A stretch of DNA of 54,415 nucleotides from the IMG/VR virus record IMGVR_UViG_3300038455_000034, positions 1 to 54,415 of that record; one strand, 5' to 3'. This DNA is from a virus. Positions within the stretch are counted from its first letter, which is position 1. Each line of letters opens with the position of its first letter. Positions 26,151 through 54,415 of this stretch are shown piece by piece. The notes under the pieces were generated by a model. That model saw nothing but the letters and a program-made list of their open reading frames with translations, was not told the origin of the DNA and did no database searches. The position numbers were made by a program, and so were the translations under genes.

Positions 26151-26183
26151 GTACTACCAGACATGACGACGGAGGCAAGGACG

Positions 26184-26393
26184 ATGACGAAGCAGACCAT
26201 GGAAGAGCAAGTGACGGCAGCATTTCGCGGTGAATACGCGATGTTGGTCGAAGGACTCACCGCAGAAGATGAGCGTGTGAATGCATTGGAAACCGCGCGC
26301 GAACGAGCTGCCGCGCTGATTCCCGAAGGTCGTTTCGGTAGTTTTGATGACGAAATGTTGATCTTCGCCGAAGACCCTACATCGAATACGTAG
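26184..26393 (+). CDS. Small acidic protein (69 aa), cassette 1
   Basis: ATG 26184 follows gacggaggcaaggacg. Track ORF 26163..26393. Confidence 0.55.
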   Translation: MTKQTMEEQVTAAFRGEYAMLVEGLTAEDERVNALETARERAAALIPEGRFGSFDDEMLIFAEDPTSNT

Positions 26394-26408
26394 CCACCCC
26401 CCCCCCAC

Positions 26409-26440
26409 CGCGCGCGTGCGCTCGCAGATCGGCGCGCTCG
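26409..26440. repeat. Junction element copy 1 (GC-palindrome after the stop codon)
   Basis: ..ccaccgcgcgcgtgcgctcgcagatcggcgcgctcggacca.. preceded by a C10 run (26397-26406). Confidence 0.6.
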
Positions 26441-26483
26441 GACCAATCACGGACCCTAGGACAACAAACGGAGGAATAGGACC

Positions 26484-26726
26484 ATGAAAATCAAGCCCGC
26501 TCAACGCCGAAATCTGCGCTGCAAACTGTCCGGTGACACATTTGTTTCGCGCGGTCGCATCTATATTAGCACCTGTCCAGCTGACAACTATGCGACGCTT
26601 GAGGAGCTGCGAGACGGTTCGAACGACGCAGGCCAGAGCGACGAGCATCTCAACGCGTTTGTGCGAGACCCGGAGCATCATCGCTACCAGGGTAAGCTCC
26701 TGTACGTGCCAGTTACGATTCTCTAG
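26484..26726 (+). CDS. Hypothetical protein (80 aa), cassette 2
   Basis: Track ORF with RBS acggagg. Confidence 0.6.
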   Translation: MKIKPAQRRNLRCKLSGDTFVSRGRIYISTCPADNYATLEELRDGSNDAGQSDEHLNAFVRDPEHHRYQGKLLYVPVTIL

Positions 26727-26753
26727 CCACAGACGACGGAGGCAAGGACGACC

Positions 26754-27331: not shown

Positions 27332-28294
27332 ATGTGTAAGCCATTGAGCGGTTACGCGAGTAGGCCGGGCGAGATCTACTGCATCCCCGAGAGAACACAC
27401 TCTCATAGCGAGCTCGCCTGGGCGTTCGGCCTGAACGATAGTGACGTCTCGTTCTATCGACAGAACCTAGCCAAGTACGAGTTTACCCCACCGGAAGATC
27501 CGAAACTGTGGGGAGACCTGTCCAAGTGGGAGCTGCGGGTCGATGAGGACGCGACGCCGGACTGGTTTGATCGTGAAAAGGTTCGCGTCCACATGGAGAT
27601 GCTTGTCGAGTCGATGTTCATCCGCGACGAACGCGGGGTACTCTGCGGAGGGTGTTGGATCCTCGACGGAGAGAGGGCGCGGATCAAAGGGATCCTTGGA
27701 GGAACGATCGTAGGCGTCGTGAACGGTGCCAGCCTCGACGGTGCCCGCCTCGACGGTGCCCGCCTCGACGGTGCCAGCCTCGACGGTGCCAGCCTCGTCG
27801 GTGCCAGCCTCTACCGTGCCAGCCTCTACCGTGCCAACCTCGACGGTGCCAGCCTCGACGGTGCCCGCCTTGACGGTGCCCGCCTCGACGGTGCCAGCCT
27901 CGACGGTGCCAGCCTCGACGGTGCCAGCCTCGTCGGTGCCCGCCTCTACCGTGCCAGCCTCTACCGTGCCAGCCTCTACCGTGCCAACCTCGTCGGTGCC
28001 CGCCTCGACGGTGCCCGCCTTGACGGTGCCAGCCTCGACGGTGCCCGCCTCGACGGTGCCCGCCTCGACGGTGCCCGCCTCGACGGTGCCAGCCTCGACG
28101 GTGCCCGCCTCGACGGTGCCCGCCTCGACGGTGCCCGCCTCGACGGTGCCCGCCTCTACCGTGCCAACCTCGACGGTGCCAGCCTCGTCGGTGCCAGCCT
28201 CGTCGGTGCCTATATTCAGGATGGTGGATGGATTCCGGCGGGGTGGAAGCGCGGTCAAAACGGACTATTGGTCAAGGATGACACTACACGATGA
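27332..28294 (+). CDS. Pentapeptide-repeat protein (N-terminal ~130-aa domain plus 32 consecutive pentapeptides)
   Basis: 320-aa ORF. The units are [25 protein letters not shown] x 32, matching the A(D/N)LXX-type quadrilateral beta-helix signature. Confidence 0.85.
27725..28204 (+). repeat. 32 x 15-bp near-identical tandem repeat (ggtgcc[ac]gcctcgac and variants)
   Basis: Read directly. Only a few variant positions occur per unit. Confidence 0.95.
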
Positions 28295-28998: not shown

Positions 28999-29174
28999 TT
29001 ACCCAGCGAGAACTGTATCTCGCCCAGAAGCATCTCGACCTACAGACGCCAGCCGATGACGAGCCTGCGACGGAATACGAGCGCGACTATGACCCCGACG
29101 ACGAGCCGGGCGACGGCGACAAAGGCGCGATCGTGCTGGTTGACGGCGAAATCGCCGCGAAGGCGGAGGTGTAG
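28995..29174 (+). CDS. Small strongly acidic protein (59 aa)
   Basis: ATGA overlap. Translation is MITQRELYLAQKHLDLQTPADDEPATEYERDYDPDDEPGDGDKGAIVLVDGEIAAKAEV. By my count it has 17 D/E against 5 K/R. Confidence 0.5.
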   Translation: MITQRELYLAQKHLDLQTPADDEPATEYERDYDPDDEPGDGDKGAIVLVDGEIAAKAEV

Positions 29175-29176
29175 CG

Positions 29177-29368
29177 ATGCTGCGATTCATCCTGCGCCGA
29201 GAGACCTATTCAACGGTCGATGAACTGCGGACATCGGATCTCTTCACGGTGGACGCGGAAGTCCAAGCGCTGGAAGATGCGCTGTGCGCCGGTGGGCGAG
29301 GAGAAGCGGGATTCGACAGGACCGAGCTTGTTGGCGTCGAGGTGCTTCCGAAGAAGGCGGAGGTGTAG
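29177..29368 (+). CDS. Hypothetical protein (63 aa)
   Basis: Track ORF. It shares the 17-nt 3' end gaaggcggaggtgtagc with the preceding gene. Confidence 0.55.
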   Translation: MLRFILRRETYSTVDELRTSDLFTVDAEVQALEDALCAGGRGEAGFDRTELVGVEVLPKKAEV

Positions 29369-29370
29369 CC

Positions 29371-30240
29371 GTGGCGACAATCCTCCACCCCGGCCTGCAC
29401 CTCGGCGTCCCGCATTCCGTCTATCACTCCGACCCGAGCGAGCGCCCGTCGCTGTCAAGCCACGTGGCGAGCACGCTCATCTCGAAGTCGCCAGGGCACG
29501 CGAAGATGATCCACCCGCGCTTCGGCGCCCTTCGCGGCGACTCCAGCGACGAAATGGATACCGGCTCGATTTTGCACGGCCTACTTCTCGGTGGCGGTGC
29601 CGAGCTGGTTGCCGTCGATGCCGATTCCTGGCGCACCAACACGGCCAAGGCGGCTCGCGATGAAGCTCGCCAGGCTGGCAAGATCGCCGTGTTGGCCGGC
29701 AAGCTAGAGAGACTTCAGAAAGCAGCCGGCTGGATTCGCATGTCATTGCCTATCGACTTGACCAAGGCGTCGACGGAGGCGACGGCGATCTGGACGTCAC
29801 AGGATTGCCCGTGCCGATGCCGCATCGATATCCTGATGCCGGACCTATGGATCTGGGACCTCAAGACCTGCGAAGATGCCTCGGTCGCGTCGGCAGACCG
29901 CAACATCGCGGCCATGGGCTACCACCTACAGGGCGCCGCCAACATCGACGGCGTCGAGTCGACGGTGGAAGGCGCCGCCGGCCGCGTCCACTTCGGATTG
30001 TGCTTCGTCGAGTGGGAGAACCCCGAGATCGGTATCGTTCGCAAGGAGGTGCGCGGGCAGCTTCTGGACGTCGGGCAGCGACGGTGGAACCGTGCGAAGG
30101 GCATCTGGGCGCGCTGTCTCGCCGACAACAGGTGGCCTGGGTACTCGACGGAGATCACGGAAGCGCAGTGCCCGCCGTGGATCGCCGCAGAAGACATGGA
30201 ACAGCAGATCGCCGGGAACGCTGGTGGGGAGCCATTCTAA
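29371..30240 (+). CDS. PD-(D/E)XK exonuclease (RecE C-terminal / DUF3799-like)
   Basis: GTG 29371 follows ggagg. Motif ..RIDILMPDLWIWDLKT.. (D..D-L-K) and a later ..GYHLQ.. are consistent with this nuclease fold. Confidence 0.65.
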   Translation: MATILHPGLHLGVPHSVYHSDPSERPSLSSHVASTLISKSPGHAKMIHPRFGALRGDSSDEMDTGSILHGLLLGGGAELVAVDADSWRTNTAKAARDEARQAGKIAVLAGKLERLQKAAGWIRMSLPIDLTKASTEATAIWTSQDCPCRCRIDILMPDLWIWDLKTCEDASVASADRNIAAMGYHLQGAANIDGVESTVEGAAGRVHFGLCFVEWENPEIGIVRKEVRGQLLDVGQRRWNRAKGIWARCLADNRWPGYSTEITEAQCPPWIAAEDMEQQIAGNAGGEPF

Positions 30241-30242
30241 CC

Positions 30243-30743
30243 ATGCGAACGATAGTCCTCACGAAGGGGAAGGTTGCCATCGTCGACGCCGAGGACTACG
30301 CCACCTTGCGCGGTTTCAAGTGGTATGCTCTGTTCCGCGATGGTAGCTGGCACGCGGCCCGGACGGTGAAGCGCAACGGAGAGAAGCGAACCGTCTACAT
30401 GCACAGGCAGATCATGGGGGAACCTGAAGGGATGCTTGTAGACCATCGCAACAGAGACGGGCTCGACAACAGGCGAGAGAACCTGCGCGTCTGCACGAAG
30501 AGGCAGAACGCGTGGAATGGACACAGAAGGATTCGGAACAAGACGAGTAGGTTCAAGGGCGTGTGTCGCCAGTGCGGCCGAGTTGGAGCGACGGGGAGGC
30601 CATGGAGGGCCACGATCACCGTAGCGGGACGGCAGAAGTATCTCGGATGGTTCAAGACTCAAGCCGACGCCGCACGCGCCTATGATGATGCTGCCGTGTT
30701 TCACTTTGGCGAATTCGCGCGCACCAACTTCCAGAGGAGATGA
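30243..30743 (+). CDS. HNH endonuclease with AP2 DNA-binding domain (homing-endonuclease type)
   Basis: ..VDHRNRDGLDNRRENLRVCTKRQN.. is HNH_3-like, and ..SRFKGV....WRATI...GRQKYLGWFKTQADAARAYDDAA.. is AP2. Confidence 0.85.
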   Translation: MRTIVLTKGKVAIVDAEDYATLRGFKWYALFRDGSWHAARTVKRNGEKRTVYMHRQIMGEPEGMLVDHRNRDGLDNRRENLRVCTKRQNAWNGHRRIRNKTSRFKGVCRQCGRVGATGRPWRATITVAGRQKYLGWFKTQADAARAYDDAAVFHFGEFARTNFQRR

Positions 30744-30746
30744 CCA

Positions 30747-31787
30747 ATGACGACGAGCAGAACTTTCACAAGCAGTCCGGCGGTAAGGGCAAGAGTGCCA
30801 TTGATCATCGGCCTGTCTGGCCCAAGCGGATCTGGAAAGACCTATTCCGCGCTGGAGCTGGCTACCGGGATCCAGTCCGTCACGGGCGGAGACATTCATG
30901 TCGTAGACACCGAGAGCAAGCGGGCTCTCCACTATGCTGACTATTTCAAGTTCATCCATACTCCGTTCGCGCCACCGTTCGGCCCGCTGGACTACATGGC
31001 AGCGTTTCAGCATTGCATCTCGAAGGGAGCCAAGATCATCATCGCCGACTCGATGACCCTGGAACACGACGGCGAGGGCGGGGTGTTGGATCAGATTGAA
31101 GCTTTTCTGACGGCCAAGGCGGGGGACGACTGGGAGAAGCGCAATCGGTTCCTAATGCTCGCCAACGCGAAGCCGAAGGCGGAGCGCAAGAAGCTCAACC
31201 AGTACATCGTGCAGAACGGTGACGTGGTGTGGATCCTGTGCTACCGCGCGCAGGACAAGACCAAGCCACTCAAGAGGGGCCAGACGTCGCCAGACGGAGA
31301 GAAGATCCTTCACCTTGGGTGGCAACCAATCACGACTTCGCCCTTGGTCTTCGAGATGACGGCAAGGTTCCTTCTCGGCCCGTGTTCCGAGGGGCACCCG
31401 ACCCTGAATCCAGGCGAGGAGGCCGAGAAGATGATGATCAAGAATCCTCGGCAGTTTGCTGGGTGGGTGGAGCCCGACCAGCAACTGAGCCGAGACCTGG
31501 GTGCCAAGATGGCCAAGTGGGCCGCCGGGGACGCATCGGCGCAACCGACGGACGCGAAGCCTGCCAAGAAGCGCGACCCCGTTGCCGGCCTGATGACAAT
31601 CCTCGGGCTCGGCCAGTGGCCAAACGCTGAGGCGCGCATCCTTTCCTCGCTCGGCAAGAATCACCGCAGCGAGCTAGATGAGACCGACATCGACAAGCTC
31701 ACGGCGACCTACAAGTCCGTGAAGAAAGACGCCGCGGAATTCGACCGGCTTTGCCCACCGCTGCCAGCAGGAGGCAGCCACGGCTAG
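30747..31787 (+). CDS. Sak4-like / AAA_24-type recombination ATPase
   Basis: Walker A GLSGPSGSGKT, then ..KIIIADSMT.. (Walker B-like). It is adjacent to the exonuclease. Confidence 0.7.
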   Translation: MTTSRTFTSSPAVRARVPLIIGLSGPSGSGKTYSALELATGIQSVTGGDIHVVDTESKRALHYADYFKFIHTPFAPPFGPLDYMAAFQHCISKGAKIIIADSMTLEHDGEGGVLDQIEAFLTAKAGDDWEKRNRFLMLANAKPKAERKKLNQYIVQNGDVVWILCYRAQDKTKPLKRGQTSPDGEKILHLGWQPITTSPLVFEMTARFLLGPCSEGHPTLNPGEEAEKMMIKNPRQFAGWVEPDQQLSRDLGAKMAKWAAGDASAQPTDAKPAKKRDPVAGLMTILGLGQWPNAEARILSSLGKNHRSELDETDIDKLTATYKSVKKDAAEFDRLCPPLPAGGSHG

Positions 31788-32268: not shown

Positions 32269-32619
32269 ATGATCGACGTAGACAGTCTCACAATTGGACA
32301 ACTCAAGGAGCTTCGTGCGCTCCTTGGCGGCGACTCCGCCACAACCCAGCCACCGCACCCTTACGAGATCGGCAAGGTGCACTTCATCCGCACCGTAACC
32401 CACCACTTTACAGGAAAGCTCGTGGCCGTGTTCCCGCAGGAGCTGGTCTTCGAGGACGTGGCGTGGATTGCCGACGATGGGCGGCTCGCCACCGCGCTCG
32501 TGAAAGGCGAGTTCAACGAGGTCGAGCCGTACCCGGACGGGCGAAGAGTGGTCATCGGTCGCGGTTCGCTCATTGACGCCCACGCCGTCGAATGGGTGGC
32601 GCCAAGGTCGCAGCGATGA
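32269..32619 (+). CDS. Conserved phage protein of unknown function (116 aa)
   Basis: Track ORF with RBS gaaagga. Confidence 0.65.
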   Translation: MIDVDSLTIGQLKELRALLGGDSATTQPPHPYEIGKVHFIRTVTHHFTGKLVAVFPQELVFEDVAWIADDGRLATALVKGEFNEVEPYPDGRRVVIGRGSLIDAHAVEWVAPRSQR

Positions 32620-32822
32620 ACGCGGCGATCCTGTTTTCCGGGTGGTCGGGGTTGGGGTCGGGGTCGCGGTCGCGGTCGCGGTCGGGGTCGCGGTCGGGGT
32701 CGGGGTTGGGGTCGCGGTCGGAGTCGGGGTCGCGGTCGGGGTCGTGGTCGGGGTCGTGGTCGGGGTCGTGGTCGCGGTCGCGGTCGCGGTCGTGGTCGCG
32801 GTCGCGGTCGCGGTCGGGCTAA
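32616..32822 (+). CDS. Candidate 68-aa Ser-Arg/Ser-Gly/Ser-Trp dipeptide-repeat protein (tentative)
   Basis: ATG 32616 forms an ATGA overlap with the upstream stop. All repeat codons are TCG/CGG/GGG/TGG. Stop TAA is at 32820-32822, with a hairpin 13 nt downstream. A second frame (Gly-Val/Ala-Val) is also open. Confidence 0.3.
   Translation: MNAAILFSGWSGLGSGSRSRSRSGSRSGSGLGSRSESGSRSGSWSGSWSGSWSRSRSRSWSRSRSRSG
32644..32817. repeat. 29 x hexanucleotide GGTCGN microsatellite, G-rich on the + strand
   Basis: Counted directly. The units are ggtcgg/ggtcgc/ggtcgt/ggttgg/agtcgg. Confidence 0.95.
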
Positions 32823-32834
32823 AGAGATCACGCA

Positions 32835-32855
32835 AGCGCATCCTGGCGATGCGCT
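32835..32855 (+). terminator. Hairpin agcgcatc-ctggc-gatgcgct (no U-tract)
   Basis: An 8-bp perfect stem directly after the repeat tract. Confidence 0.3.
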
Positions 32856-33071: not shown

Positions 33072-34370
33072 ATGGACAATTCACAGGACAAGAAACCCGC
33101 AACCACCGACGCCCACACGGGGAGCGGAGGACAGGCTACTGACGAAATCGACTGGGCAGATGACTACCTCCGCGATCTGTGGGAGGTCGCTGCCAAGGCC
33201 GTCACTAATGTAGACCCTGCCTACTGTATGACGCCCGGAGGTGTAAAGGCGGCTGTGCGGGCGGTGCTTGGCGCGATGGGAGCGCCGCGGGGAACGGAGG
33301 CGCCCAGGTCGGAGGCGAGAGACCTTGAGAGCCTGACCAATATCATCGACTGGCTTCGATTGCGCGAGCCATCCGTGGTAACCTCCAGCACTGAGATTGC
33401 CAAAGCCGCTCTCGCCTATGTCGGAGGCGAGCTGGCCCGGGTGCGAAGGGAACTGGCGACCGCTGAGGCCGCTTTGGTGGCATCGGCCAAGGCAACTTCG
33501 GAGCGGCTTGAAAAGGCAGAGACGACGGTAGACAGCCAGGCCGACCAGCTCGCCGCTCTCAAGGCTGACCTCGCCGCCTCCCGCACCGAACGTGACTCTG
33601 CTCGGGACGAGCTTGGCAAGGTGCTCGGATTGCGCGCTGTGGACTTCGCCCACGGTGAGACCGTGCGAATCGCTGAGATGAAAGCCGCGGAGCATGCGAT
33701 GTACTCGACCATCCTGGAAAAAAACACCGAACGCGCGATGAAGGAAGGCTGCCAGAAGCAACTGCGCGACATCGCGGACGCACTCGGCCCCACAGACGGA
33801 AAGCTCGACGACGAAGACGAGGACAACAGCACGTCTGCCAGGATAATTCGCTACTTGGAGGGACTGCGACAGCAGCTCGCCGAAGCCCGCAAGCCGGTGC
33901 AACGTCTCGACGAGGTCGCTGCCCTCCAAGACAACTGGGACAGCTATGGCGGCAAGGCGCCAACGGCAGAGGCGGTCGCGACGGCGCGGCAGATTCTGCA
34001 GTCCACTGCGGCGCCTGTCAGTGGTGGAGGTGTGCAGCTCGACTGGGACAATGGTGACTGTGATATCGAAATCGGGGCTGACGGCAAGATAATCGTCGAG
34101 CCGGCGGAGCCGTTGAGTGACAAGGAAATACTCGCCGTCATTGCCAGTTGGTTCAACCTTGTTAGGCCTCCCGGGATGAGCAATCACGAGCACTTGGTCA
34201 AAGTGGCAGCCGAAGCCCAGCGGCAAAAGGGGGCGAGCCTCGACGTCCCAACAACCGAATTCGTCCGCGCCGTCCGGGCTGCCGTACGCGAGTCGACTGC
34301 GCTAGACGAGCTGGACAAGCGGGTACGCGCTGCCATCGAAATGCTCGATAAAGCGCAGGTGCGGACGTGA
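33072..34370 (+). CDS. Coiled-coil protein of unknown function (432 aa)
   Basis: ATG 33072 follows gagaaagga. It has a long helical middle and a C-terminal ..NWDSYGGKAPTAEAV.. domain. Confidence 0.65.
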   Translation: MDNSQDKKPATTDAHTGSGGQATDEIDWADDYLRDLWEVAAKAVTNVDPAYCMTPGGVKAAVRAVLGAMGAPRGTEAPRSEARDLESLTNIIDWLRLREPSVVTSSTEIAKAALAYVGGELARVRRELATAEAALVASAKATSERLEKAETTVDSQADQLAALKADLAASRTERDSARDELGKVLGLRAVDFAHGETVRIAEMKAAEHAMYSTILEKNTERAMKEGCQKQLRDIADALGPTDGKLDDEDEDNSTSARIIRYLEGLRQQLAEARKPVQRLDEVAALQDNWDSYGGKAPTAEAVATARQILQSTAAPVSGGGVQLDWDNGDCDIEIGADGKIIVEPAEPLSDKEILAVIASWFNLVRPPGMSNHEHLVKVAAEAQRQKGASLDVPTTEFVRAVRAAVRESTALDELDKRVRAAIEMLDKAQVRT

Positions 34371-34377
34371 AGGAGCG
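34357..34377. repeat. 21-bp direct repeat, copy 1 (aggtgcggacgtgaaggagcg)
   Basis: Identical to 35849-35869. It spans a stop/start junction. Confidence 0.95.
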
Positions 34378-35290
34378 GATACCCGACGGAAGCCTGCGGG
34401 GTAGCGTCGAGGTAAATGCAAATGAGTCCTCTGTATGGTCAGACACCGTCGGGATAGCCAAGTTGGCATCAGCAGCACTGAAAGTACCTTTATATCTTCG
34501 CGATGACGCCGAAGCAGAGGCGCTGGCCGCATTGGTGGACGCGTATCAACGATTTGATCCAACGAAAGCATCCTGGACAACCTACGCTTTGCCTCGTGCG
34601 CGCGGGGCAATATTGGATTTTCTCCGTCGCTGGAATCCATTAAGCCGTGGCATGCGCGCCAAAGTCAAGACGGGTCAAATACACGATGTGGTTAGAGTGA
34701 GCGCCGATACCAAGGACCGCTACGGACGCTCCATTCTCGATCAGATCCCTGCCATTGAGGCATCTGAAAAGGACATAATTCATGCCGTGGATAGTGTGAA
34801 ACGAATTTCCTTGCTACCCATGCGTTTACGCAAGGTTATCAAAGCGCGTTTACATGGCAGTAGCATCGCTGAGATTGCCAAGAGCGAGAAGATCCATGTT
34901 ACACGAGTTTCACAACTCATTGGTGAGGCGCTCCATTGGATAAGCGAACTTGACAAATTGAGCCACCATCCCCGCAATATATACGCCGCACGTTGGCGTT
35001 TAAAGATATTGATTGGGCGAGGCCGACGTAAATGCCAGATATGTGGGCAGCCAGTGGGAATAAGCGAGCGCCAAGGCCCCATTTGGTCATGCTCAGATAA
35101 GTGTCGGCGCCGACGCAAACTGGAACGCGACGCCGCCAATAGGCGCGAGCATGCCATCTGCACACAGTGTCGGTACTGTGGGCGTCCATGTGAAACAGGT
35201 AACATCTGCTATGCCCATCGCAAGCGATTGTTAAGAAGTACTGACATGACGGCGGATATTCGCAGTCGCAGTCAAAGGGGCTCGACATGA
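34367..35290 (+). CDS. Sigma-70-family (ECF-sized) sigma factor with a Cys-rich C-terminal extension
   Basis: Region-2-like ..DAYQRFDPTKASWTTYALPRARGAILDFLRR.. and region-4-like ..LRKVIKARLHGSSIAEIAKSEKIHVTRVSQLIGEAL.., followed by several CxxC pairs. Confidence 0.75.
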   Translation: MKERIPDGSLRGSVEVNANESSVWSDTVGIAKLASAALKVPLYLRDDAEAEALAALVDAYQRFDPTKASWTTYALPRARGAILDFLRRWNPLSRGMRAKVKTGQIHDVVRVSADTKDRYGRSILDQIPAIEASEKDIIHAVDSVKRISLLPMRLRKVIKARLHGSSIAEIAKSEKIHVTRVSQLIGEALHWISELDKLSHHPRNIYAARWRLKILIGRGRRKCQICGQPVGISERQGPIWSCSDKCRRRRKLERDAANRREHAICTQCRYCGRPCETGNICYAHRKRLLRSTDMTADIRSRSQRGST

Positions 35291-35862
35291 AACGCGGCGA
35301 TCGCATACAATACACAGCGCGGTTTTTGCGAACTGTCTACGGAGATGGCAGTGGAACCGGTGGTCTGTTGGCACCGCCCGAGAGCACCACGCGAACCGGA
35401 ACCTTCTATGCCTTACTGCCGACTCATGATGGTACTTTTCCAACGCACGCGGTGATCCGTTGGGATGGAAATCCGAGGGCGGGGTTTATCCACTTAAGTG
35501 CGATTGCCCCACTCGGACACAGTAGACTTAATGAGATAGATGACATGCCAGATGCTATAGCGTTGGGGTTGTTATCGACAATAGATGCCATACCTAAACA
35601 GACAACATTGGAACGCAGAGGCCCCAGCTTTCAGCCTTATATATGCAGAATAGACGGCATACAAATGACGGCGTGTCACGGATGTTTCCTGGCCATGAGA
35701 CGGAAAGCGCTAGATGTCCATCCCGAACGATGGTCTGACGACGACATCAAAGATGGTGGGGCAAACCGGAAGACTAGGATTGAGAGGCGTTTTACGGAGA
35801 CGTCTACTATGGCTCAAACATGTCAAAGATGCCAACCACAGAATGGAAAGGTGCGGACGTGA
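35287..35862 (+). CDS. Hypothetical protein (191 aa), partner of the sigma factor
   Basis: ATGA overlap with the sigma gene. Confidence 0.6.
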   Translation: MKRGDRIQYTARFLRTVYGDGSGTGGLLAPPESTTRTGTFYALLPTHDGTFPTHAVIRWDGNPRAGFIHLSAIAPLGHSRLNEIDDMPDAIALGLLSTIDAIPKQTTLERRGPSFQPYICRIDGIQMTACHGCFLAMRRKALDVHPERWSDDDIKDGGANRKTRIERRFTETSTMAQTCQRCQPQNGKVRT

Positions 35863-35869
35863 AGGAGCG
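35849..35869. repeat. 21-bp direct repeat, copy 2
   Basis: Identical to 34357-34377. Confidence 0.95.
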
Positions 35870-36068
35870 TGAGCTTCGCGCCCTACTGGCCGAAGGAGTC
35901 GCCATGATGGAAGCAACGTATGGAGACACCGAGAAGATGTGTGCCGAACTTGAGCGCTCCGGCAACGCGACCACGCTCGACGATGGATCAGTCAGCTACG
36001 GTCAGCCATGGAATTGGCTGCGCAAGGCGAAGATGGAATGCGAACTGAAGCAGGCGAGGAAGCCATGA
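35859..36068 (+). CDS. Hypothetical protein (69 aa from GTG 35859; alternative ATG 35820/35829)
   Basis: The GTGA overlap has the same junction sequence as the sigma gene start. Confidence 0.5.
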   Translation: MKERELRALLAEGVAMMEATYGDTEKMCAELERSGNATTLDDGSVSYGQPWNWLRKAKMECELKQARKP

Positions 36069-36412
36069 AGAAACCCAGCGAGCCAAGCGTCGACGTCGCC
36101 AAGCTGCCGTTTCGGTCTCGGAATGAATGGCTGTGGCGGTGGGTGTGGAAAGTCGACGTCGGCTCCAGCACGCTCCACAGATTGGTCGGACCAGTGGACA
36201 TTAATTGCGACGCAGGCATAGCAACCGGGACCGCAGGCTGCGGCCTTAAAGGCTCGTTCGAGATGCCAGGTGGCGGCCTCGCACAGGGCGCCCGTCGCTG
36301 TCCTCAGTGCTGCGATGCCGTTGGCGTGGCCCGCGGTCGAGGCGCGCCGTTCAACCACGGGGAGAACGAGCCCGGCTGCCAGGGGCCGGCGAAGGAGAAA
36401 GGGAAGCCATGA
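36065..36412 (+). CDS. Hypothetical Cys-containing protein (115 aa)
   Basis: ATGA overlap (ggaagccATGA). Confidence 0.55.
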   Translation: MKKPSEPSVDVAKLPFRSRNEWLWRWVWKVDVGSSTLHRLVGPVDINCDAGIATGTAGCGLKGSFEMPGGGLAQGARRCPQCCDAVGVARGRGAPFNHGENEPGCQGPAKEKGKP

Positions 36413-36687
36413 TTCCCGACACCCTCACGAAAGAGCAGCTCCACACCCTGCAACACTCGCTCGGCGTCGACCAATACGGCCGAGGAAACCACTACCGCAA
36501 CCGCTACGTGTGTGACCCTGGCGACTCGGTGATCGATTCTCTGGTGGCGGCTGGTCTAATGGTAGACGCGAGCGCGCCTTCATTCTGCGGCGGTATGCAC
36601 TGCTACATGGTCACCGACGATGGCAAGCGCGCGATGTTCAAGCATAGCCCGCAACCGCCGAAGCTGACCAGGTCGCAGAAGCGGTGA
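36409..36687 (+). CDS. Hypothetical protein (92 aa)
   Basis: ATGA overlap (ggaagccATGA). Sequence is protein-like. Confidence 0.6.
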   Translation: MIPDTLTKEQLHTLQHSLGVDQYGRGNHYRNRYVCDPGDSVIDSLVAAGLMVDASAPSFCGGMHCYMVTDDGKRAMFKHSPQPPKLTRSQKR

Positions 36688-36717
36688 AATAGATTCGTAG
36701 AGTCGGGAGCCAAGGAG

Positions 36718-37204
36718 GTTGGTTGCATGCTTATCCGGTTCACACACTCTACAAAGTTGATAGGATTTGAAAATGTCTCAATGGACAAAAAAAGACATTA
36801 AAATTATGTGCAATGCTCTCAGTAGCTTCTGGCTAGTTAACCGTCCACTGAGCTATCGGCATGACGAATGGGAGAGGGCCAAGAATATGGTCATCGCTCA
36901 CTTGGACCAACATAGAGCCGAGATCGTCATTTCCGGCGTCGCCCAACTAGCCAGCATAGCAAGCGACCGTGTTCAAAAGAATCAAGAAACAGCCGACCAT
37001 TTTCTGAACCATCCAAACATCTACGGATCTAGCACCCCAGAAATGGTCGAGCGATTTACCTCGTTAGCCCGAGAGTCGCAACGAGACGTTGACAAGGCAG
37101 CGATCCTCGTAGCGAAGATCCAAGCGGAAGGGCTACCTCCAGAAGTGATCAACTTCAATCCCACAATCAATTAGGTGTGTCAACCGGATAAGCATGGTTG
37201 GTTG
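36718..37204. mobile_element. Candidate miniature insertion: 471-bp low-GC cassette with 22-bp terminal inverted repeats and an 8-bp flanking direct duplication
   Basis: TIR-L 36726-36747 catgcttatccggttcacacac is the reverse complement of TIR-R 37175-37196 at 21/22. gttggttg occurs at 36718-36725 and again at 37197-37204. Confidence 0.45.
36773..37174 (+). CDS. Hypothetical protein (133 aa), passenger of the TIR-bounded cassette
   Basis: ATG 36773 (track start TTG 36767). Visibly AT-richer codon usage than the neighbours. Confidence 0.6.
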   Translation: MSQWTKKDIKIMCNALSSFWLVNRPLSYRHDEWERAKNMVIAHLDQHRAEIVISGVAQLASIASDRVQKNQETADHFLNHPNIYGSSTPEMVERFTSLARESQRDVDKAAILVAKIQAEGLPPEVINFNPTIN

Positions 37205-37452
37205 GAGCTTTCTCGAGTGGCTGAAGACAGACGAGGGTAGAAAGTGACCCCCGCCCTCTCCACCTGCGCCGGCGGCATCCCGAGCGATGCGCACCTGTGC
37301 CCGTGCTGCAAACTGCGGTCAAGGTATTCGAGCGCGGTTTGGTTTGCCACCTGTTCACCGTGCGCTCGCGTGACGCTCCTGACATCGATACCGAGGCTGG
37401 TCATGGTGCGCACCATCCGCCACTTCCGCGATCTGGGCAAAGGCGGGTGACT

Positions 37453-37647
37453 ATGAAGCTGTCAAAAGCGGACGCGAAACTGGTAGCCGAGGCGGTCACG
37501 ATGGTGAGAGAGGCGCAGCTTCAGGGCAACAAGCGTATCACCCTCGACACTCCGACGGGATGGAGCATGACAGACGACGACTGGGAAGCCGCCGTGGTGG
37601 CTCATCTCGCTCGAAGCGGAAAGATTAGCCGCAAATACGAACAGTGA
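37453..37647 (+). CDS. Hypothetical protein (64 aa)
   Basis: Internal ATG of ORF 37297..37647. The upstream part of that ORF is Arg/Pro junk. Confidence 0.5.
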   Translation: MKLSKADAKLVAEAVTMVREAQLQGNKRITLDTPTGWSMTDDDWEAAVVAHLARSGKISRKYEQ

Positions 37648-37699
37648 CCGGCGGCTCAAGGGGCGGAACCTAAACGCAGTCCAAGGAGGAAAGAGAATC

Positions 37700-38059
37700 A
37701 TGAGCATCCATGGATATTGGATCGATCACGATAACTACCCATTCGATGAGCATCGCGAGCAGGGTCGCGAGGATGCCCGCTATGATAGGCAACGCGACTA
37801 CGACCTCGCGGACCAATTTTCGGAGCGCGGGCGCGCCTACAATGAGGGATTCGACCGCGAGGTGCGACGCAAGGAAGAGGAACGTGCCGAGCGGTACCGC
37901 GAAGAAGAACGGCAAGCCGAGGCGGCTTCCCGACGGCATCGCGAGCAGTTTGCCGAGGACGACGCCTATCAGGAACAGTTCGCTGGCGAGCAGTATCCCC
38001 AACAGCCTGACTGCGAACCCGAGTCCCAGCCGGGCGGGCCACTGGACGAGGAGCGGTGA
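37700..38059 (+). CDS. Highly charged (Glu/Arg/Asp-rich) protein (119 aa)
   Basis: Strong RBS aaggagg. Confidence 0.6.
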   Translation: MSIHGYWIDHDNYPFDEHREQGREDARYDRQRDYDLADQFSERGRAYNEGFDREVRRKEEERAERYREEERQAEAASRRHREQFAEDDAYQEQFAGEQYPQQPDCEPESQPGGPLDEER

Positions 38060-38718
38060 TGCCACTTCGGGACAACATCGACCAGAAGGCCCGCGCGATG
38101 TCGCTCGGCTACCAGCGGGAGCACGCAGACCCAGAGAAGCGCGCCTGCCGATGGTGCGGCGGACCCGTGCCCAAGGGCCGCCGGTCGTGGTGTAGCGAGG
38201 CATGCGTCCACGAGGCGCTGATGCGCGCCCATCCAGGCTACGCGCGTTCCCAGGTGGAGAAGCGAGATCACGGCATCTGCGCAGTCTGCGGCCTCGACTG
38301 CGGACGATTGGAGAGGCTGGTAGATCGGCTGCTGAGGTTGTCCGAGTTGGTGGTGTGGGTGCGCACGGACACCGGCGCCACGGTGAGCGAATACTGGCGC
38401 GAGATTCCCAGTGTGCAGCTCAAGCAGGTGCCCCACCCGGCGGCCAACAAAGCGCTGCGAAACCTGGAGCTGTTGCTGGTCATCCTCGGGTTGTGGGCGG
38501 GTCACGACCTGCGCAAGTGGACCTGGCACGCCGTCCACGGCATCGGCAGACGAGACAGGCTACCACTCAAGCATTCGCTTTGGCAGGCTGACCACATCCG
38601 TCCAGTGGTCGAGGGTGGCGGCGGGTGCGGTCTCGACAACTATCGCACGCTCTGCCTTCGCTGCCACAAGCGCGCGACGGCCGCGCTTGCGACGAGGCGT
38701 GCTGATGCCATTCGCTGA
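38059..38718 (+). CDS. HNH endonuclease with N-terminal zinc ribbon
   Basis: ..WQADHIRPVVEGGGGCGLDNYRTLCLRCHKR.. is an HNH motif, preceded by CRWCGG...CSEAC. Confidence 0.8.
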   Translation: MPLRDNIDQKARAMSLGYQREHADPEKRACRWCGGPVPKGRRSWCSEACVHEALMRAHPGYARSQVEKRDHGICAVCGLDCGRLERLVDRLLRLSELVVWVRTDTGATVSEYWREIPSVQLKQVPHPAANKALRNLELLLVILGLWAGHDLRKWTWHAVHGIGRRDRLPLKHSLWQADHIRPVVEGGGGCGLDNYRTLCLRCHKRATAALATRRADAIR

Positions 38719-38739
38719 AGTAACCCCGACCGAAACCTC

Positions 38740-38768
38740 TTGACAGCGGCCCGGTGTCGTGCTTTGAT
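38740..38768 (+). promoter_or_regulatory. Candidate sigma-70-type promoter
   Basis: TTGACA 38740-38745, a 17-nt spacer, then TTTGAT 38763-38768. It sits in the 226-bp gap before gene 38945. Confidence 0.3.
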
Positions 38769-38944
38769 GGATGATGTCGAGATGCATACTCACAAACATC
38801 AACGCTTGAAAACGGCGGCTCTCACCCGGTGGGCGTGCGTCTCGACAACCTCGATCGTTGGGTTGACGGGCCGTCGCTTTGAGGTGTTGATCGGTTCTGC
38901 AACTACAACCAGAGAGGCCGGAATACAACCAACAGGAGAGTGAC

Positions 38945-39244
38945 ATGGACGACATCTTTGCACTTCAGGGAGACCAGATTATTCGCAAGCTCGACAAACG
39001 CATCGCCGGGGAACTCGAACCGGCGAGGGACCTGGTGATTGCTGGCAGCCACAGTAGCCCGCACATCATCGTCGGGCGCTGCTACACGCGCATGGAGCGA
39101 GATAGGAGGCTCGTCCGCGTGTCGCGCGCGACGATCATCAAGCATGCGGACCGGCATCGGCCCACGAAACTCATCAAGGGAGACTACGAAATTTATCCCC
39201 AGCGCGAGCGCGGCGGCGACGGTGACCGGGCCGTGGAGGACTGA
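38945..39244 (+). CDS. Hypothetical protein (99 aa)
   Basis: RBS caggagag. Confidence 0.6.
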   Translation: MDDIFALQGDQIIRKLDKRIAGELEPARDLVIAGSHSSPHIIVGRCYTRMERDRRLVRVSRATIIKHADRHRPTKLIKGDYEIYPQRERGGDGDRAVED

Positions 39245-39245
39245 C

Positions 39246-40802
39246 ATGGCTAAGAAGCTCTATCACATGACCCCGGCACACAGAAGGCGCCTCCACGACT
39301 GGTCCGATAAGGTGCTGGCCAACGCGCGCAGAACAGACCCCATGTCGGCCGAGGATCGCGCGAAGGCCGAGGGCGCCATTCGCGGCATCTACAACAGCAT
39401 CGGCCTCGGCGGAGGGAAGGTGCGCGTGGTCTTTTGCGCATCTCCTGACGTCGCCAGAATTGCTGGCCGCCTAGCGTTTTCCGCGCGCTGGCTACGCGAG
39501 CATCCCGAATCCCAGCGCAAGATCTTCGGCCGTCTCCTGCGACCGGCAGAGCTAAGGGATGCGCTCCGCCGAGCCGCGACTATGTTGGTGGTGGGGACCA
39601 GGTCTCGCATGAGCGATTTGGAGCCGAAAGTGCTCCCTCTCGTCCGAGCTGCCGCTGCCGCTGCCGCTGCCGCTGACGCTGCCGCTGCCACTGCCGCTGC
39701 CGCTGCCACTGCCGCTGCCGCTGCCGCTGCCGCTGCCACTGCCGATGCCACTGCCGCTGCCGCTGACGCTGCCGATGCCGCTGCCGATGCCGATGACGCT
39801 GACGCTGCCGCTGACGATGCCGCTGCCGCTGCCGCTGCCACTGCCGCTGCCGCTGCCGATGCCGATGCCGATGCCGCTGCCGATGCCGATGACGCTGACG
39901 CTGCCGATGACGATGCCGCTGCCGCTGCCGATGCCGCTGCCGCTGCCGATGCCGCTGCCGCTGCCGCTGCCGCTGCCGCTGACGCTGCCGATGCCGATGC
40001 CGCTGCCGCTGCCGCTGCCGATGCCGATGCCGCTGCCGCTGCCGATGCCGCTGCCGCTGCCGCTGCCGCTGCCGCTGCCGATGGGATCGTCGTGGCATGC
40101 ACCTACTACTTCGTGCGGGCGTATAGGCGATATTGGTGGAGGCGCTTGCAGGGCGGAAACCTCCGCACGTGGCATCTAGTCAGGTGCGGGTTCTTTCTCC
40201 ACGTCGCCAAGCTCGACATCAACTGGCGTAGCTATCCCCAGTACGAAGCTGCGGCGTTTGCGTCGGGTCCGCGGGTCATGTATCGCGACTTTTGTCTGGT
40301 CTCCGATCGTTGCTCCGTGTTGCACAACGATGAACGAAATCGGCTGCACTGTGAGACTGGCCCGGCCATCGGGTGGAGAAATGGATCCTCCATGTACTAC
40401 TGGCACGGCGTCCGGGTGCCGAGGCGATTGATCGAGAGGCCTGGTTCCTACACCTCCGACGAGTACAAGAGACTCCCGGCGGAACAGCGGCGCGCTCTTG
40501 GTGAGCATCTGGGATGGGACAAGGTGCTTGCGATGCTCGGATCGTCGTCGGTTGACGACGCGATCATCGACGGCTTGGCGTATGAGCTTGTCAGGTGCTC
40601 CGATCACTCACAATACCTACGCATGCAGAGCCCGGTGCTGCAAGACGGGTCACAACCATACTATTTGGAACCCGCGCATGAGGATTCGAAGACGGCGGCT
40701 GGAGCACGCAAGTGGCGATTGGCTCGCGAGCCTAGCGGGAGATGGTGGACGCCAGGTGAGTGTGACGAGAATCCAACTATCAAGATCGGCCAGCACACGT
40801 GA
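39246..40802 (+). CDS. DUF6745-like protein interrupted by a ~144-residue poly-Ala/Asp tract
   Basis: ATG 39246. The N-terminus ..TDPMSAEDRAKAEGAIRGIYNSIGLGGGKVRVVFCASP.. and C-terminus ..LHCETGPAIGWRNGSSMYYWHGVRVP.. are recalled family signatures. Confidence 0.65.
   Translation: MAKKLYHMTPAHRRRLHDWSDKVLANARRTDPMSAEDRAKAEGAIRGIYNSIGLGGGKVRVVFCASPDVARIAGRLAFSARWLREHPESQRKIFGRLLRPAELRDALRRAATMLVVGTRSRMSDLEPKVLPLVRAAAAAAAAADAAAATAAAAATAAAAAAAAATADATAAAADAADAAADADDADAAADDAAAAAAATAAAAADADADAAADADDADAADDDAAAAADAAAAADAAAAAAAAAADAADADAAAAAAADADAAAAADAAAAAAAAAAADGIVVACTYYFVRAYRRYWWRRLQGGNLRTWHLVRCGFFLHVAKLDINWRSYPQYEAAAFASGPRVMYRDFCLVSDRCSVLHNDERNRLHCETGPAIGWRNGSSMYYWHGVRVPRRLIERPGSYTSDEYKRLPAEQRRALGEHLGWDKVLAMLGSSSVDDAIIDGLAYELVRCSDHSQYLRMQSPVLQDGSQPYYLEPAHEDSKTAAGARKWRLAREPSGRWWTPGECDENPTIKIGQHT
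39648..40080 (+). repeat. About 72 hexanucleotide units (gctgcc/gctgac/gatgcc/actgcc) encoding Ala/Asp/Thr low complexity
   Basis: Read directly. It produces open shadow frames in several other frames. Confidence 0.95.
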
Positions 40803-43532: not shown

Positions 43533-43729
43533 CCACGCCAATCGAGAACCGCGCCATGTGGAAGATTCACCATGCGACGATGGCCAAGGCCAGAGCGCAA
43601 GGCGCAGATTTCGCCTGCGCCACCGAGCTTGGATTCGCTGCGACCGATGCGGCCGGTGGAAAGGCGCGTGAGGTGAAGCTGTGCGAGCGATGCATTCGGC
43701 GCGGAGTCGCCGCGGAAAGGAAGCCGTGA
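43529..43729 (+). CDS. Hypothetical protein (66 aa)
   Basis: ATGA overlap. It ends ..GVAAERKP. Confidence 0.55.
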   Translation: MTTPIENRAMWKIHHATMAKARAQGADFACATELGFAATDAAGGKAREVKLCERCIRRGVAAERKP

Positions 43730-44085
43730 TCAACTGCGACTGTTCCACCGACGAAGGTGAAAGCGTCCGCTGTTCTCGGGTGACGATTCGGAAGGCAAGG
43801 AAGCCGCACCAGTGTTGCGAATGTGGCGAGCCCATCCTGCCAGGGCAGAGGTATGAAGACGCCACCGGAATCGACTGCGATGGCGAAGCGTACGGGTACA
43901 GTACGTGCATGACCTGCAAGGCGATTCGCGACGACTACTGCCCGCATGGATTCATGTATTCCTGCCTGGCCGAGACGATCCAAGATTGCCTTGGCTTCGA
44001 CTACCGAACGCTTCCCAACGAACTCGAAGCGCGGCGAATCGACGAAGAAGATGCAGAGCGAGTCGCCGCGGAAAGGACGATATGA
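43726..44085 (+). CDS. Cys-rich protein (119 aa)
   Basis: GTGA overlap. It has CCECGE..C..C motifs and ends ..RVAAERTI. Confidence 0.6.
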   Translation: MINCDCSTDEGESVRCSRVTIRKARKPHQCCECGEPILPGQRYEDATGIDCDGEAYGYSTCMTCKAIRDDYCPHGFMYSCLAETIQDCLGFDYRTLPNELEARRIDEEDAERVAAERTI

Positions 44086-44372
44086 TGGCAACTCGAAGGT
44101 ATGCCGGGGCGATTCGTTACCAGCTACCAGGTTCAGACGAGCACATCGTGTTCCCAGACCCACTTTCTCCGCAGGTCGTCGACGCCGCCTACCGTGCGCG
44201 ATACCACATGGCAGGGTTAACCCAGATCGACTGCTTCCACCTCGCCTCGTGCGCGGAATTCTTGGCGGACCTAGCCGCTTGCAATTCGACGATGGAGTGG
44301 TCGACGGGAATACTGCGCGCGATGCGGAAGGTGATTCGCGAGATGGACTGTGAATCGCGAGATGGACTGTGA
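44082..44372 (+). CDS. Hypothetical protein (96 aa) with a 3' end altered by a 19-bp duplication
   Basis: ATGA overlap. The stop lies inside the second repeat copy. Confidence 0.6.
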   Translation: MMATRRYAGAIRYQLPGSDEHIVFPDPLSPQVVDAAYRARYHMAGLTQIDCFHLASCAEFLADLAACNSTMEWSTGILRAMRKVIREMDCESRDGL

Positions 44373-44374
44373 AT
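44337..44374. repeat. Perfect 2 x 19-bp tandem duplication (cgcgagatggactgtgaat)
   Basis: Read directly: 44337-44355 equals 44356-44374. Confidence 0.95.
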
Positions 44375-44402
44375 CGGTCGCCGCGGAAAGGACGGAATAG
44401 AC

Positions 44403-53282: not shown

Positions 53283-54415
53283 ATGAGTTCAACGGTTGGA
53301 TATCTGACGGCGGCTCCGGTCGCTACGTCAGCAGAGCTTGCCGAGATTGCCATCATTAAGGCGCTCGGTGCCGCTCAATATGAAGTCACCGTTCTGTGTG
53401 GCGCCCCCAAGGCGCAGCTCACGGCGATTACCCTGTCTGCTGCTCAGGCTGACAATTCGTACAACGACGCAGGAGGAGCTATCACCGCGTCGACGATCTC
53501 GGCGGCAGAGTCTGACAACTCCCTGAACGACTCCGGGAGCGGCTTCGTCACCGCAGGATTCCAGGTCGGCCAGGTGCTGACGATTTCAGGGTTCACCGGA
53601 GACACCGACAACAACACGGCCGGAGAGGCGGTGGTGTACAGTGTAACCGCAGCCAAGATGGTGCTCACCGGCGTCACTTTGGCGGATGATTCCGCAGGGG
53701 AATCGGTAACTGTGACATCGGCTGGGCTCTTCCTTGAGCGCGGTTTCAAGGTTGGCCAAGAGATCATGGTCCGTGGCTTCACCGGCAACATCGCGAACAA
53801 CATCGACAGCGGTGTCATCACGGCGCTGACGGCGTCAAAGATGATCATCGGCGGGACGGATGGCGACGTGATCGTCAACGATTCCGCCGGAGAGTCGGTG
53901 ACCATCTGCACCGTCGAGAGTGACGCCACCTACGGAGGGACACTCAAGTCGTTCGACTATCTCGCGGGCACCATCCCCGAGCAATACAAGTCTGGTGGAA
54001 CCCCAGTCGCAACTGTGTTCGACCCTGCGAATCCTCCCGAGGGGCCCGGCATGGCCTCCACCCAAGCCATCATCAGCCACGGCGAAACCGTGGCGGTCAA
54101 GACCAACGGCGGCGCATCTTCGGACAACGCAACCGCGACGGTGGCAGCGCATGCATGCACGGTGGCTCTACCGACGACGAAGACCGTTGTGGAGCATGGT
54201 GACACGCTCGCTCTCACCACAGCAGGAACCGTGACTTTCGGGGTATCTGGTGGAACACTGTCCGGTGACATTGCGGCTACGACTGCGGTGGTTGCCAACA
54301 ATGCCACGACAACCGTCGATGGCAAGACTGTGACGCTGGCTGTTTCGTCGCGCGCTCTCACTGGAGGAACCATCGCAGGAACGCAGAAGATCATGGCTCA
54401 CGGTGATACTGTAAC
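53283..54415 (+). CDS. Capsid-surface / decoration-like protein with internal repeats; runs off the window end and finishes at 1..200
   Basis: ATG 53283 lies 7 nt after gagga, and there is no stop before 54415. The repeated module GF-VGQ-(L/I)x(I/V)xGFTGxxxNN....V..(V/L)TA(A/S)KM(V/I)(L/I).G appears twice. The gene is absent from the ORF track because it lacks an in-window stop. Confidence 0.75.
   Translation, partial: MSSTVGYLTAAPVATSAELAEIAIIKALGAAQYEVTVLCGAPKAQLTAITLSAAQADNSYNDAGGAITASTISAAESDNSLNDSGSGFVTAGFQVGQVLTISGFTGDTDNNTAGEAVVYSVTAAKMVLTGVTLADDSAGESVTVTSAGLFLERGFKVGQEIMVRGFTGNIANNIDSGVITALTASKMIIGGTDGDVIVNDSAGESVTICTVESDATYGGTLKSFDYLAGTIPEQYKSGGTPVATVFDPANPPEGPGMASTQAIISHGETVAVKTNGGASSDNATATVAAHACTVALPTTKTVVEHGDTLALTTAGTVTFGVSGGTLSGDIAATTAVVANNATTTVDGKTVTLAVSSRALTGGTIAGTQKIMAHGDTV
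54289..54415. repeat. Terminal redundancy, identical to 1..127
   Basis: Read directly. Confidence 0.95.

Follow-up and report, generated by a model that had tools for sequence, protein, structure and literature searches.

Morons of tailed phages are accessory modules of deviant base composition that are set precisely between two tightly packed operon genes, and classical ones carry their own promoter and terminator. The start-associated sequences of Cluster K mycobacteriophages, reportedly 13 bp long and found ahead of many genes in a single genome, place a conserved short motif at the translation starts of several unrelated genes in a phage clade. Phage-encoded and FliA/WhiG-type sigma factors have a region 2/4 architecture, and extracytoplasmic function (ECF) sigma factors with Cys-rich C-terminal extensions carry a Cys-rich add-on. 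In the PeSL cassettes of T4-type phages (PMC2839356), short repeated regulatory sequences bracket accessory open reading frames (ORFs), and recombination between the repeats drives the gain, loss and replacement of these ORFs and can release mini-circles. Here we describe a locus that shares features with each of these: in IMG/VR virus record IMGVR_UViG_3300038455_000034 (positions 1 to 54,415; this whole stretch of 54,415 nucleotides is called the window), a sigma-factor gene and a translationally coupled partner gene (p191) lie between two copies of a perfect 21-bp direct repeat (X, AGGTGCGGACGTGAAGGAGCG), each placed on a stop/start junction. On balance we lean towards the view that this cassette is a horizontally acquired two-gene module that was inserted at the coupled junction between two neighbouring genes, A and B, with duplication of the 21-bp junction.

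The cassette is moron-like in its deviant composition and its exact placement between tightly packed operon genes, but a consensus scan found neither a promoter upstream of it nor a terminator downstream, and its expression would run instead through the duplicated translational-coupling junction, both ends of the insert being fused in frame to host codons. The X-like motif of this phage clade (described below) recalls the Cluster K motifs in recurring at the translation starts of unrelated genes, but it spans a stop/start overlap, occurs only once or twice per locus and here brackets a compositionally foreign insert. The sigma factor of the window appears to share the region 2/4 architecture and has the Cys-rich addition, but scores far below FliA/WhiG subfamily cutoffs and has a tail that matches no Pfam family above cutoff. 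PeSL sequences consist of a promoter and a stem-loop terminator and occur in many copies per genome, whereas X is present in two copies, forms a translation junction and lacks both promoter and terminator; folding of the RNA around its two copies is not significant (z-scores -1.4 and -0.4). The locus is a variant of known phage mosaicism and not a new kind of system.

The junction repeat and its four genes

The two copies of X lie on the plus strand and are identical at 21 of 21 positions (Table 1), no third copy is found in the genome even when up to three mismatches are allowed, and 100 dinucleotide-preserving shuffles produced none; no other dispersed, non-tandem exact repeat of this genome is as long as X. 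An earlier note on this DNA, made from its letters alone, had reported the repeat, its position on gene junctions and a content of exactly two genes, and all of this holds. Both copies span GTGA stop/start overlaps in identical phase, and each holds an AGGTG Shine-Dalgarno (SD) sequence that a 5-nt spacer separates from a GTG start, which the TGA stop overlaps. The upstream proteins end in AQVRT-stop (gene A) and GKVRT-stop (p191), and the downstream ORFs begin with VKERIP (sigma) and VKEREL (gene B). Between the copies lie 1,471 bp, in which the sigma and p191 genes are coupled by an ATGA overlap (35287-35290). Gene A has no homologue besides itself among 5.8 billion clustered proteins and none in viral contigs, a close-relative scan confined to viral contigs found none for gene B, and neither the viral nor the metagenome contig collections contain the exact 21-mer.

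The bracketed segment is more AT-rich than its surroundings, as had been suspected, with a GC content of 0.522 between the X copies against 0.625 and 0.623 in the flanks. The same step is seen in GC at third codon positions (GC3), which is 0.52 in sigma and 0.49 in p191 but 0.71 in gene A and 0.69 in gene B. A two-change-point fit (lnL gain 19.9) delimits a low-GC block from 34402/34414 to 35848, the right edge of which is the base just before the right X, while the 2-lnL interval of the left edge includes the left X; X itself is 67% GC, matching the recipient genome. These data support a compositionally foreign segment with its edges on the repeats. We read low GC as a mark of foreign DNA in this genome because the one nearby island of comparable AT-richness has proved to be a transposon insertion (described below).

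Table 1. Coordinates of the cassette, its flanking genes and repeats, and related features (window positions unless a locus is named).
Feature	Position	Strand	Description
Gene A	33072..34370	+	432 aa; coiled-coil-like; native GC; ORFan; ends QVRT-stop
Left X	34357..34377	+	Last 4 codons of gene A + TGA, AGGTG SD, GTG, sigma VKER codons
Sigma-70-family factor, FliA/WhiG-like	34367..35290	+	307 aa from repeat-borne GTG; regions 2-4 at residues 45-193
Low-GC block	34402..35848		GC 0.518; maximum-likelihood two-change-point fit
p191	35287..35862	+	191 aa; ATGA-coupled to sigma; GC3 0.49; last codons and stop from right X
Right X	35849..35869	+	Last 4 codons of p191 + TGA, SD, GTG, gene B VKER codons
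Gene B	35859..36068	+	69 aa; native GC; SD and start codon inside right X
Repeat family (iv), GACGACGGAGGCAAGGACGA	26165..26751	+	Copies at 26165 and 26732; SD + start region; bracket two small genes
Repeat family (i), GAAGGCGGAGGTGTAGC	29159..29369	+	Copies at 29159 and 29353; bracket 63-aa gene 29177-29368
Repeat family (iii), GTCGCCGCGGAAAGGA	43704..44394	+	Copies at 43706, 44062 and 44377; bracket two unrelated genes
RecE-like (exonuclease VIII / PDDEXK) recombination nuclease	29371..30240	+	About 4 kb upstream of the cassette
phrog_1366 protein	30747-31787		346 aa; adjoins RecE-like gene
X-like motif AGGTGCGGNNGTGA, sites in relatives	L002 7431; L003 18757 and 18978; L004 18720

The sigma factor and its partner

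The first gene of the cassette encodes a protein that matches PF04542 (region 2; 31 bits against a gathering cutoff of 24, residues 46-88) and TIGR02937 (regions 2-4; 46.0 against a cutoff of 42.9, residues 45-193, profile positions 28-162 of 165), which bears out its earlier assignment to the sigma-70 family. The expectation that it would match models of both region 2 and region 4 stood in part: the region 2 model scores above cutoff, whereas the Pfam region 4 models alone fall below theirs (PF08281, 17.5 against 25.7; PF04545, 14.3 against 24.1). A homologue, P0005, also aligns with FliA/WhiG region 4. The best sequence, PDB and fold matches of the protein are FliA/WhiG/SigD-type sigma factors; its predicted model has a pLDDT of 57.5, and sigma factors make up all of the top Foldseek matches in the PDB (E as low as 7.5e-6, probability 1.0), though with TM-scores of just 0.2-0.3. 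Against the FliA/WhiG subfamily model itself (TIGR02479) it reaches 47.3 bits, below the cutoff of 189.6; it resembles this subfamily without belonging to it.

A Cys-rich C-terminal extension had likewise been noticed from the letters; it covers about residues 203-290 and is conserved in P0005, including the motifs CxxC..CxxxC and CxxCGRP..C(W/Y)AH. Matches of this tail to zinc-ribbon or treble-clef families are sub-threshold only, and it has no sequence relatives in the PDB; the extension resembles a zinc ribbon. The protein appears to be very rare. When 1.84 billion representative proteins were searched exhaustively with HMMER, 625 sigma-like matches came back but only one full-length relative, P0005 (about 40% identity, 39% by BLASTP, Cys-rich tail included), while 50,697 phage genomes gave no match at E ≤ 1e-3, the family is absent from viral contigs, and genome contigs yielded just generic sigma factors without the Cys-rich tail.

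The start of the sigma gene is called differently in two contigs, at the repeat-borne GTG 34367 (307 aa) in an independent Logan contig and at TTG 34463 (275 aa) in the long contig, with no further ATG, GTG or TTG in that frame between them. When read from the GTG, the N-terminus is about 18-20 residues longer than that of P0005, and the extra part begins with the repeat-encoded VKER. We also observe, inside the 5′-end of the sigma ORF, an out-of-frame mini-ORF of 13 codons (34416-34457) with a strong SD (GAGGTAAATG), which stops 5 nt before TTG 34463.

The second gene, p191, has no matches in Pfam, PHROG, NCBIfam, PADLOC or the PDB, and its predicted structure (pLDDT 45) is too poor for a structure search. 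Its conserved cysteines are arranged as C..CxxC..CxxC, which is not the zinc-binding anti-sigma motif H-x3-C-x2-C. One homologue is available, P0004 (47% identical), on a 1-kb metagenome contig, and a pattern scan of metagenome and viral contigs did not find the family. The C-terminus of p191 is 7 residues longer than that of P0004, and the extra part ends with the repeat-encoded VRT-stop.

The pairing of the two genes recurs elsewhere. P0005 is located on a 73-kb phage contig (L001) that is a distant relative of the window (primase-helicase 55% identical, replication protein 41% identical), and the coupling of sigma and p191 is matched there by the same arrangement, the sigma gene being ATGA-coupled to a gene for a 220-aa protein. 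Similarity between this protein and p191 is weak (BLASTP E=1e-5; hhalign E=2e-4, probability 46%), and the C..CxxC cysteines are in register in their alignment. The GC content of the L001 sigma gene equals that of its flanks, and no flanking repeat surrounds the pair. Because the L001 pair stands at native GC without a flanking repeat, sigma and its partner are taken as a functional unit that also exists elsewhere and is co-inherited. Family membership and synteny further suggest that sigma may redirect host RNA polymerase to phage promoters and that p191 may act on or with sigma. The candidate role that the earlier note gave to p191, as an anti-sigma factor or co-factor, has its basis in the conserved adjacency of the two genes. 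The earlier note had also proposed looking for a promoter motif shared by the late genes, but neither k-mer enrichment in intergenic gaps nor comparison with the L001 gaps revealed one, and both returned just ribosome-binding-site-like words.

Other junction repeats and an X-like motif

The geometry of the sigma cassette turns out not to be special to it, since three more families of junction repeats bracket unrelated genes in the same genome (Table 1). These are exact direct repeats of 16-20 nt that lie on stop/start or SD/start junctions, each bracketing one or two small genes, where about 0.04 local exact repeats of at least 16 nt would be expected by chance (our own estimate from genome length). 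In family (i) both upstream genes end in KAEV-stop, and in family (iii) the gene ends read VAAER(KP/TI)-stop. The genes bracketed by families (i), (iii) and (iv) have near-native GC3. A 19-bp tandem duplication (GAGATGGACTGTGAATCG twice, at 44336/44355, spanning 44336-44373) adjoins the third copy of family (iii) and frameshifts the C-terminus of gene 44082-44372, which without the duplication would end in SVAAERTE-stop. Comparable SD/start-codon repeats bracketing one or two genes are found in six related loci (L002, L004, L016, L018, L028 and L036), and in 10 of the 12 cases among the repeats of relatives the GC content between the copies is a little below that of the flanks.

A motif resembling X (AGGTGCGGNNGTGA) is present on the coding strand in all three of the closest relatives of the window (primase-helicase identity 58-63%), whereas other loci, about 1.3 Mb in all, do not contain it. 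All of the sites are true GTGA junctions, the upstream protein ending in (E/K)VR[RSP]-stop and the downstream protein starting with VK or VT, and the flanking proteins show no homology to one another or to A, B, sigma or p191. The two copies in L003 form a 17-nt exact pair, 221 bp apart, that brackets a 74-aa gene. A scan of IMG/VR for AGGTGCGGNNGTGAAG gave more than 119 matches; 44 of 119 (37%) lie on a junction flanked on each side by an ORF of 50 codons or more, whereas the figure for control GTGA sites is 9.5%, which argues that GC-rich phages favour this motif as a design for coupled junctions. Part of the motif can be put down to constraint, made up of GGAGGTG (E-V in frame), an Arg CGG codon, the GTGA overlap and a Lys AAG second codon; the enrichment of the X-like motif in this clade is real. 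The possibility, raised at the outset, that the 21-mer is a widespread junction motif with no bearing on cassette boundaries is borne out as far as the motif being widespread in GC-rich phages, but its unrelatedness to cassette boundaries is not established.

Origin of the cassette

Considering the repeat and its phase, the compositional block, the identity of the sigma gene and its conserved pairing with a partner, we propose that the ancestral arrangement was A-X-B and that the module is foreign, having entered a pre-existing GTGA junction between two native early genes. Upon insertion, the left X would have kept the stop of gene A while lending an SD and a GTG start to sigma, and the right X would have supplied the stop of p191 while restoring the SD and GTG start of gene B. 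With X on both sides, all four genes would stay in one coupled translation chain, and no imported promoter or terminator would be needed. The joining may have been by illegitimate or short-homology recombination, for example through strand switching or annealing by a phage RecE-like system; the RecE-like nuclease encoded upstream is a candidate driver of short-homology recombination, and the phrog_1366 protein encoded beside it may be its annealing partner. Selection would favour insertions that duplicate the junction, because only these retain the stop of the gene before the insert and the SD and start of the gene after it while also letting the insert be expressed. The terminal extensions of sigma and p191 at their repeat-abutting ends fit such a fusion to the junction. 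Recombination between the two copies would restore A-X-B exactly, and loss of the cassette is mechanistically plausible. The earlier suggestion of recombination at a conserved junction gains some support from AGGTGCGGNNGTGA at unrelated junctions in relatives and from the RecE-like exonuclease.

Several observations weigh against an insertion of this kind. No empty A-X-B site and no relative carrying a homologue of A or B was found, the scan for B covering viral contigs, and the direction and recency of the insertion are read from composition. In every bracketed gene the frame stays open across the repeat as far as the stop that the copies share, and because random illegitimate joining gives an in-frame product in only about 1/3 of events, either selection or a homology-guided mechanism would be needed. 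The presence of an X-like motif at unrelated junctions in relatives favours homology-guided exchange over de novo duplication. Lastly, the L001 pair lies in a broadly similar early/replication region, and the module could for this reason be old in this lineage.

Homology-guided exchange is a serious rival, although we think it unlikely to be what happened here and note that it is compatible with insertion, the two not being mutually exclusive. Under this explanation the cassette was exchanged at a clade-wide junction linker, X-type sequences (VRx-stop / GTG-AAG) serving as portable docking sequences: the donor module would have arrived already flanked by X-like junctions and recombined, with RecE/RecT-type functions, with the single X of the recipient, such that the two copies are recombination joints. 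The occurrence of AGGTGCGGNNGTGA on GTGA junctions of non-homologous genes in L002, L003 (twice) and L004 is in keeping with this, as are the internal junction of sigma and p191 (GACATGAAA), which is an AT-shifted version of the X core (GACGTGAAG), and the presence of a RecE-like nuclease; exchange also predicts the in-frame reading through the repeat, and the clade-wide motif together with the consistency of that reading favours homology guidance. However, local duplication is favoured by the 21/21 identity of the copies, which exceeds the 14-16-nt core conserved in the clade, and by the contrast between a GC-rich X and an AT-rich cassette. Moreover, the exact 21-mer turns up in neither the viral nor the metagenome collections, the window alone has the other three repeat families, and the motif itself is partly a product of constraint and is common on junctions in unrelated GC-rich IMG/VR phages. 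A broader form of the idea, in which X-type junctions are integrase-free docking sites where cassettes loop out as mini-circles and re-enter similar junctions via RecE/RecT-like proteins, seems to us doubtful. It is improbable, too, that the module is ancestral and that the repeat came later, through insertion or replacement of A or B or through short-patch gene conversion, with the low GC reflecting selection on expression. The early/replication setting of the L001 module would suit such a history, and gene A, an ORFan without homologues, could be the newcomer, but the sharp step in GC and GC3 coincides with the repeats, the L001 module has the GC of its flanks, and A and B are at native GC3. 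In the three closest relatives the module is also missing from the 10 kb to each side of the primase-helicase gene, and no homologue of sigma or p191 occurs within the same distance of that gene at 76 related loci.

We consider it very improbable that the cassette is itself a mobile element (a transposon, integrative element or homing cassette), with the 21-mers as attL/attR cores or a target-site duplication. Direct repeats around a compositionally foreign segment are what such an element would leave, and a genuine transposon 850 bp downstream indicates that the region accepts mobile DNA, but no terminal inverted repeats lie inside the pair of 21-mers, neither cassette gene has a transposase, integrase, recombinase or endonuclease domain, and the target-site duplications typical of insertion sequences are far shorter than 21 bp. 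A transposon or insertion sequence was rejected for want of terminal inverted repeats and transposase, and an integrase-dependent element for want of a recombinase domain; that the three other junction families are unrelated to X in sequence argues against any site-specific system. The probability of an assembly chimera, formed through a shared 21-mer in the de Bruijn graph, is negligible. Twenty-one is a common minimum k-mer size in assemblers, but the record closes on a 127-bp terminal overlap, which implies a final assembly k of about 127, far above 21, and an independent Logan contig built at k=31 (SRR12953417_776847; 5,343 bp; L093/L095) spans both X junctions at 100% identity over the 4,521 bp compared (34342-38862; its full extent implies an end at about 39684). 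The overlap and this contig together exclude a chimera. Of these explanations we continue to prefer insertion of a foreign module with duplication of the junction.

Genome context and neighbouring elements

The window holds a complete tailed-phage genome of 54,288 bp with an exact terminal overlap (1-127 / 54289-54415), and is either circularly closed or terminally redundant. Its structural genes include those for a tail tube, tape measure, portal-like DUF4055 protein, Gp13-like major capsid protein and large terminase, and its early/replication region encodes, on the same strand, a RecE-like exonuclease VIII/PDDEXK, two HNH endonucleases, a replication initiator, a primase-helicase and a D12 methyltransferase. 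The nearest isolates, whose hosts are Proteobacteria, have a capsid identity of at most 44%, and no nucleotide-level relative was found among the 50,697 phage genomes. Rfam families have no match anywhere in the window, and no match to defence-system models was significant. The two HNH endonuclease genes are free-standing (30243-30743 and 38059-38718), and one of them is wedged between the genes for the RecE-like exonuclease and the phrog_1366 protein, which are probable co-workers.

Three tandem arrays are present in the genome. One consists of a 15-nt unit (27603-28290) encoding a pentapeptide-repeat protein (Pfam Pentapeptide, 134 bits), another of a 12/18-nt unit (39560-40165) within ORF 39039-40802 (DUF6745). 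The third, a long GC-rich hexanucleotide array (GGTCGN)n with 12/18-nt units, lies at 32608-32853 between gene 32269-32619 and gene A and is open in several frames (GV/PR/TP repeats); the independent assembly breaks there too. The Logan contig that crosses the cassette starts at 34342, 15 nt upstream of the left X, while the remaining contig ends in the SRR12953417 Logan assembly lie inside tandem-repeat arrays. X does not explain the break at 34342, as a 21-nt repeat cannot break a k=31 graph, and a precise X-mediated deletion allele would put the break at 34348. Gene A has no record in the Logan assemblies through which the sequence beside the left junction could be followed; the break may reflect some heterogeneity or a gap in coverage close to that junction, and proves nothing.

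The next low-GC island downstream is a 471-bp element (36726-37196; 36718-37204 with its duplications) of the IS1595 family, with 22-bp terminal inverted repeats (36726-36747 / 37175-37196, 21 of 22 positions identical) and an 8-bp target-site duplication (GTTGGTTG). The same inverted repeat is found in 32 stretches of IMG/VR contigs (L096-L127), where element lengths run from 256 to 2,265 bp, in most cases with perfect 8-bp duplications. A transposase of the IS1595 family (DDE_Tnp_IS1595, 114.9 bits; Zn_ribbon_IS1595, 46.5 bits) is present in the long copies, and the short copies carry varied passenger ORFs. The copy in the window is a non-autonomous derivative with a low-GC passenger ORF of 133 aa. 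We found no description of this element family in phages in the papers searched.

Implications for tightly packed phage operons

If the cassette entered as proposed, it would be a base-resolved example of a regulatory module added to a tightly overlapped operon without breaking it, in which duplication of the junction keeps both neighbours translated and expresses the newcomers without a promoter of their own. The junction repeats would double as built-in sites for precise gene loss. The recurrence of this signature, at four sites here and also in related phages, suggests a footprint that can be searched for, namely local exact repeats of 16-22 nt spanning stop/start junctions. Were the doubtful docking-site reading true, cassettes would arrive pre-wired into translational coupling, and both the four repeat families of this genome and the X-like motif of three relatives would be traces left by a general plug-in system for cassettes at the level of translation. 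The module itself appears to define a very rare lineage of sigma factors, with a zinc-ribbon-like tail and what may be a dedicated partner.

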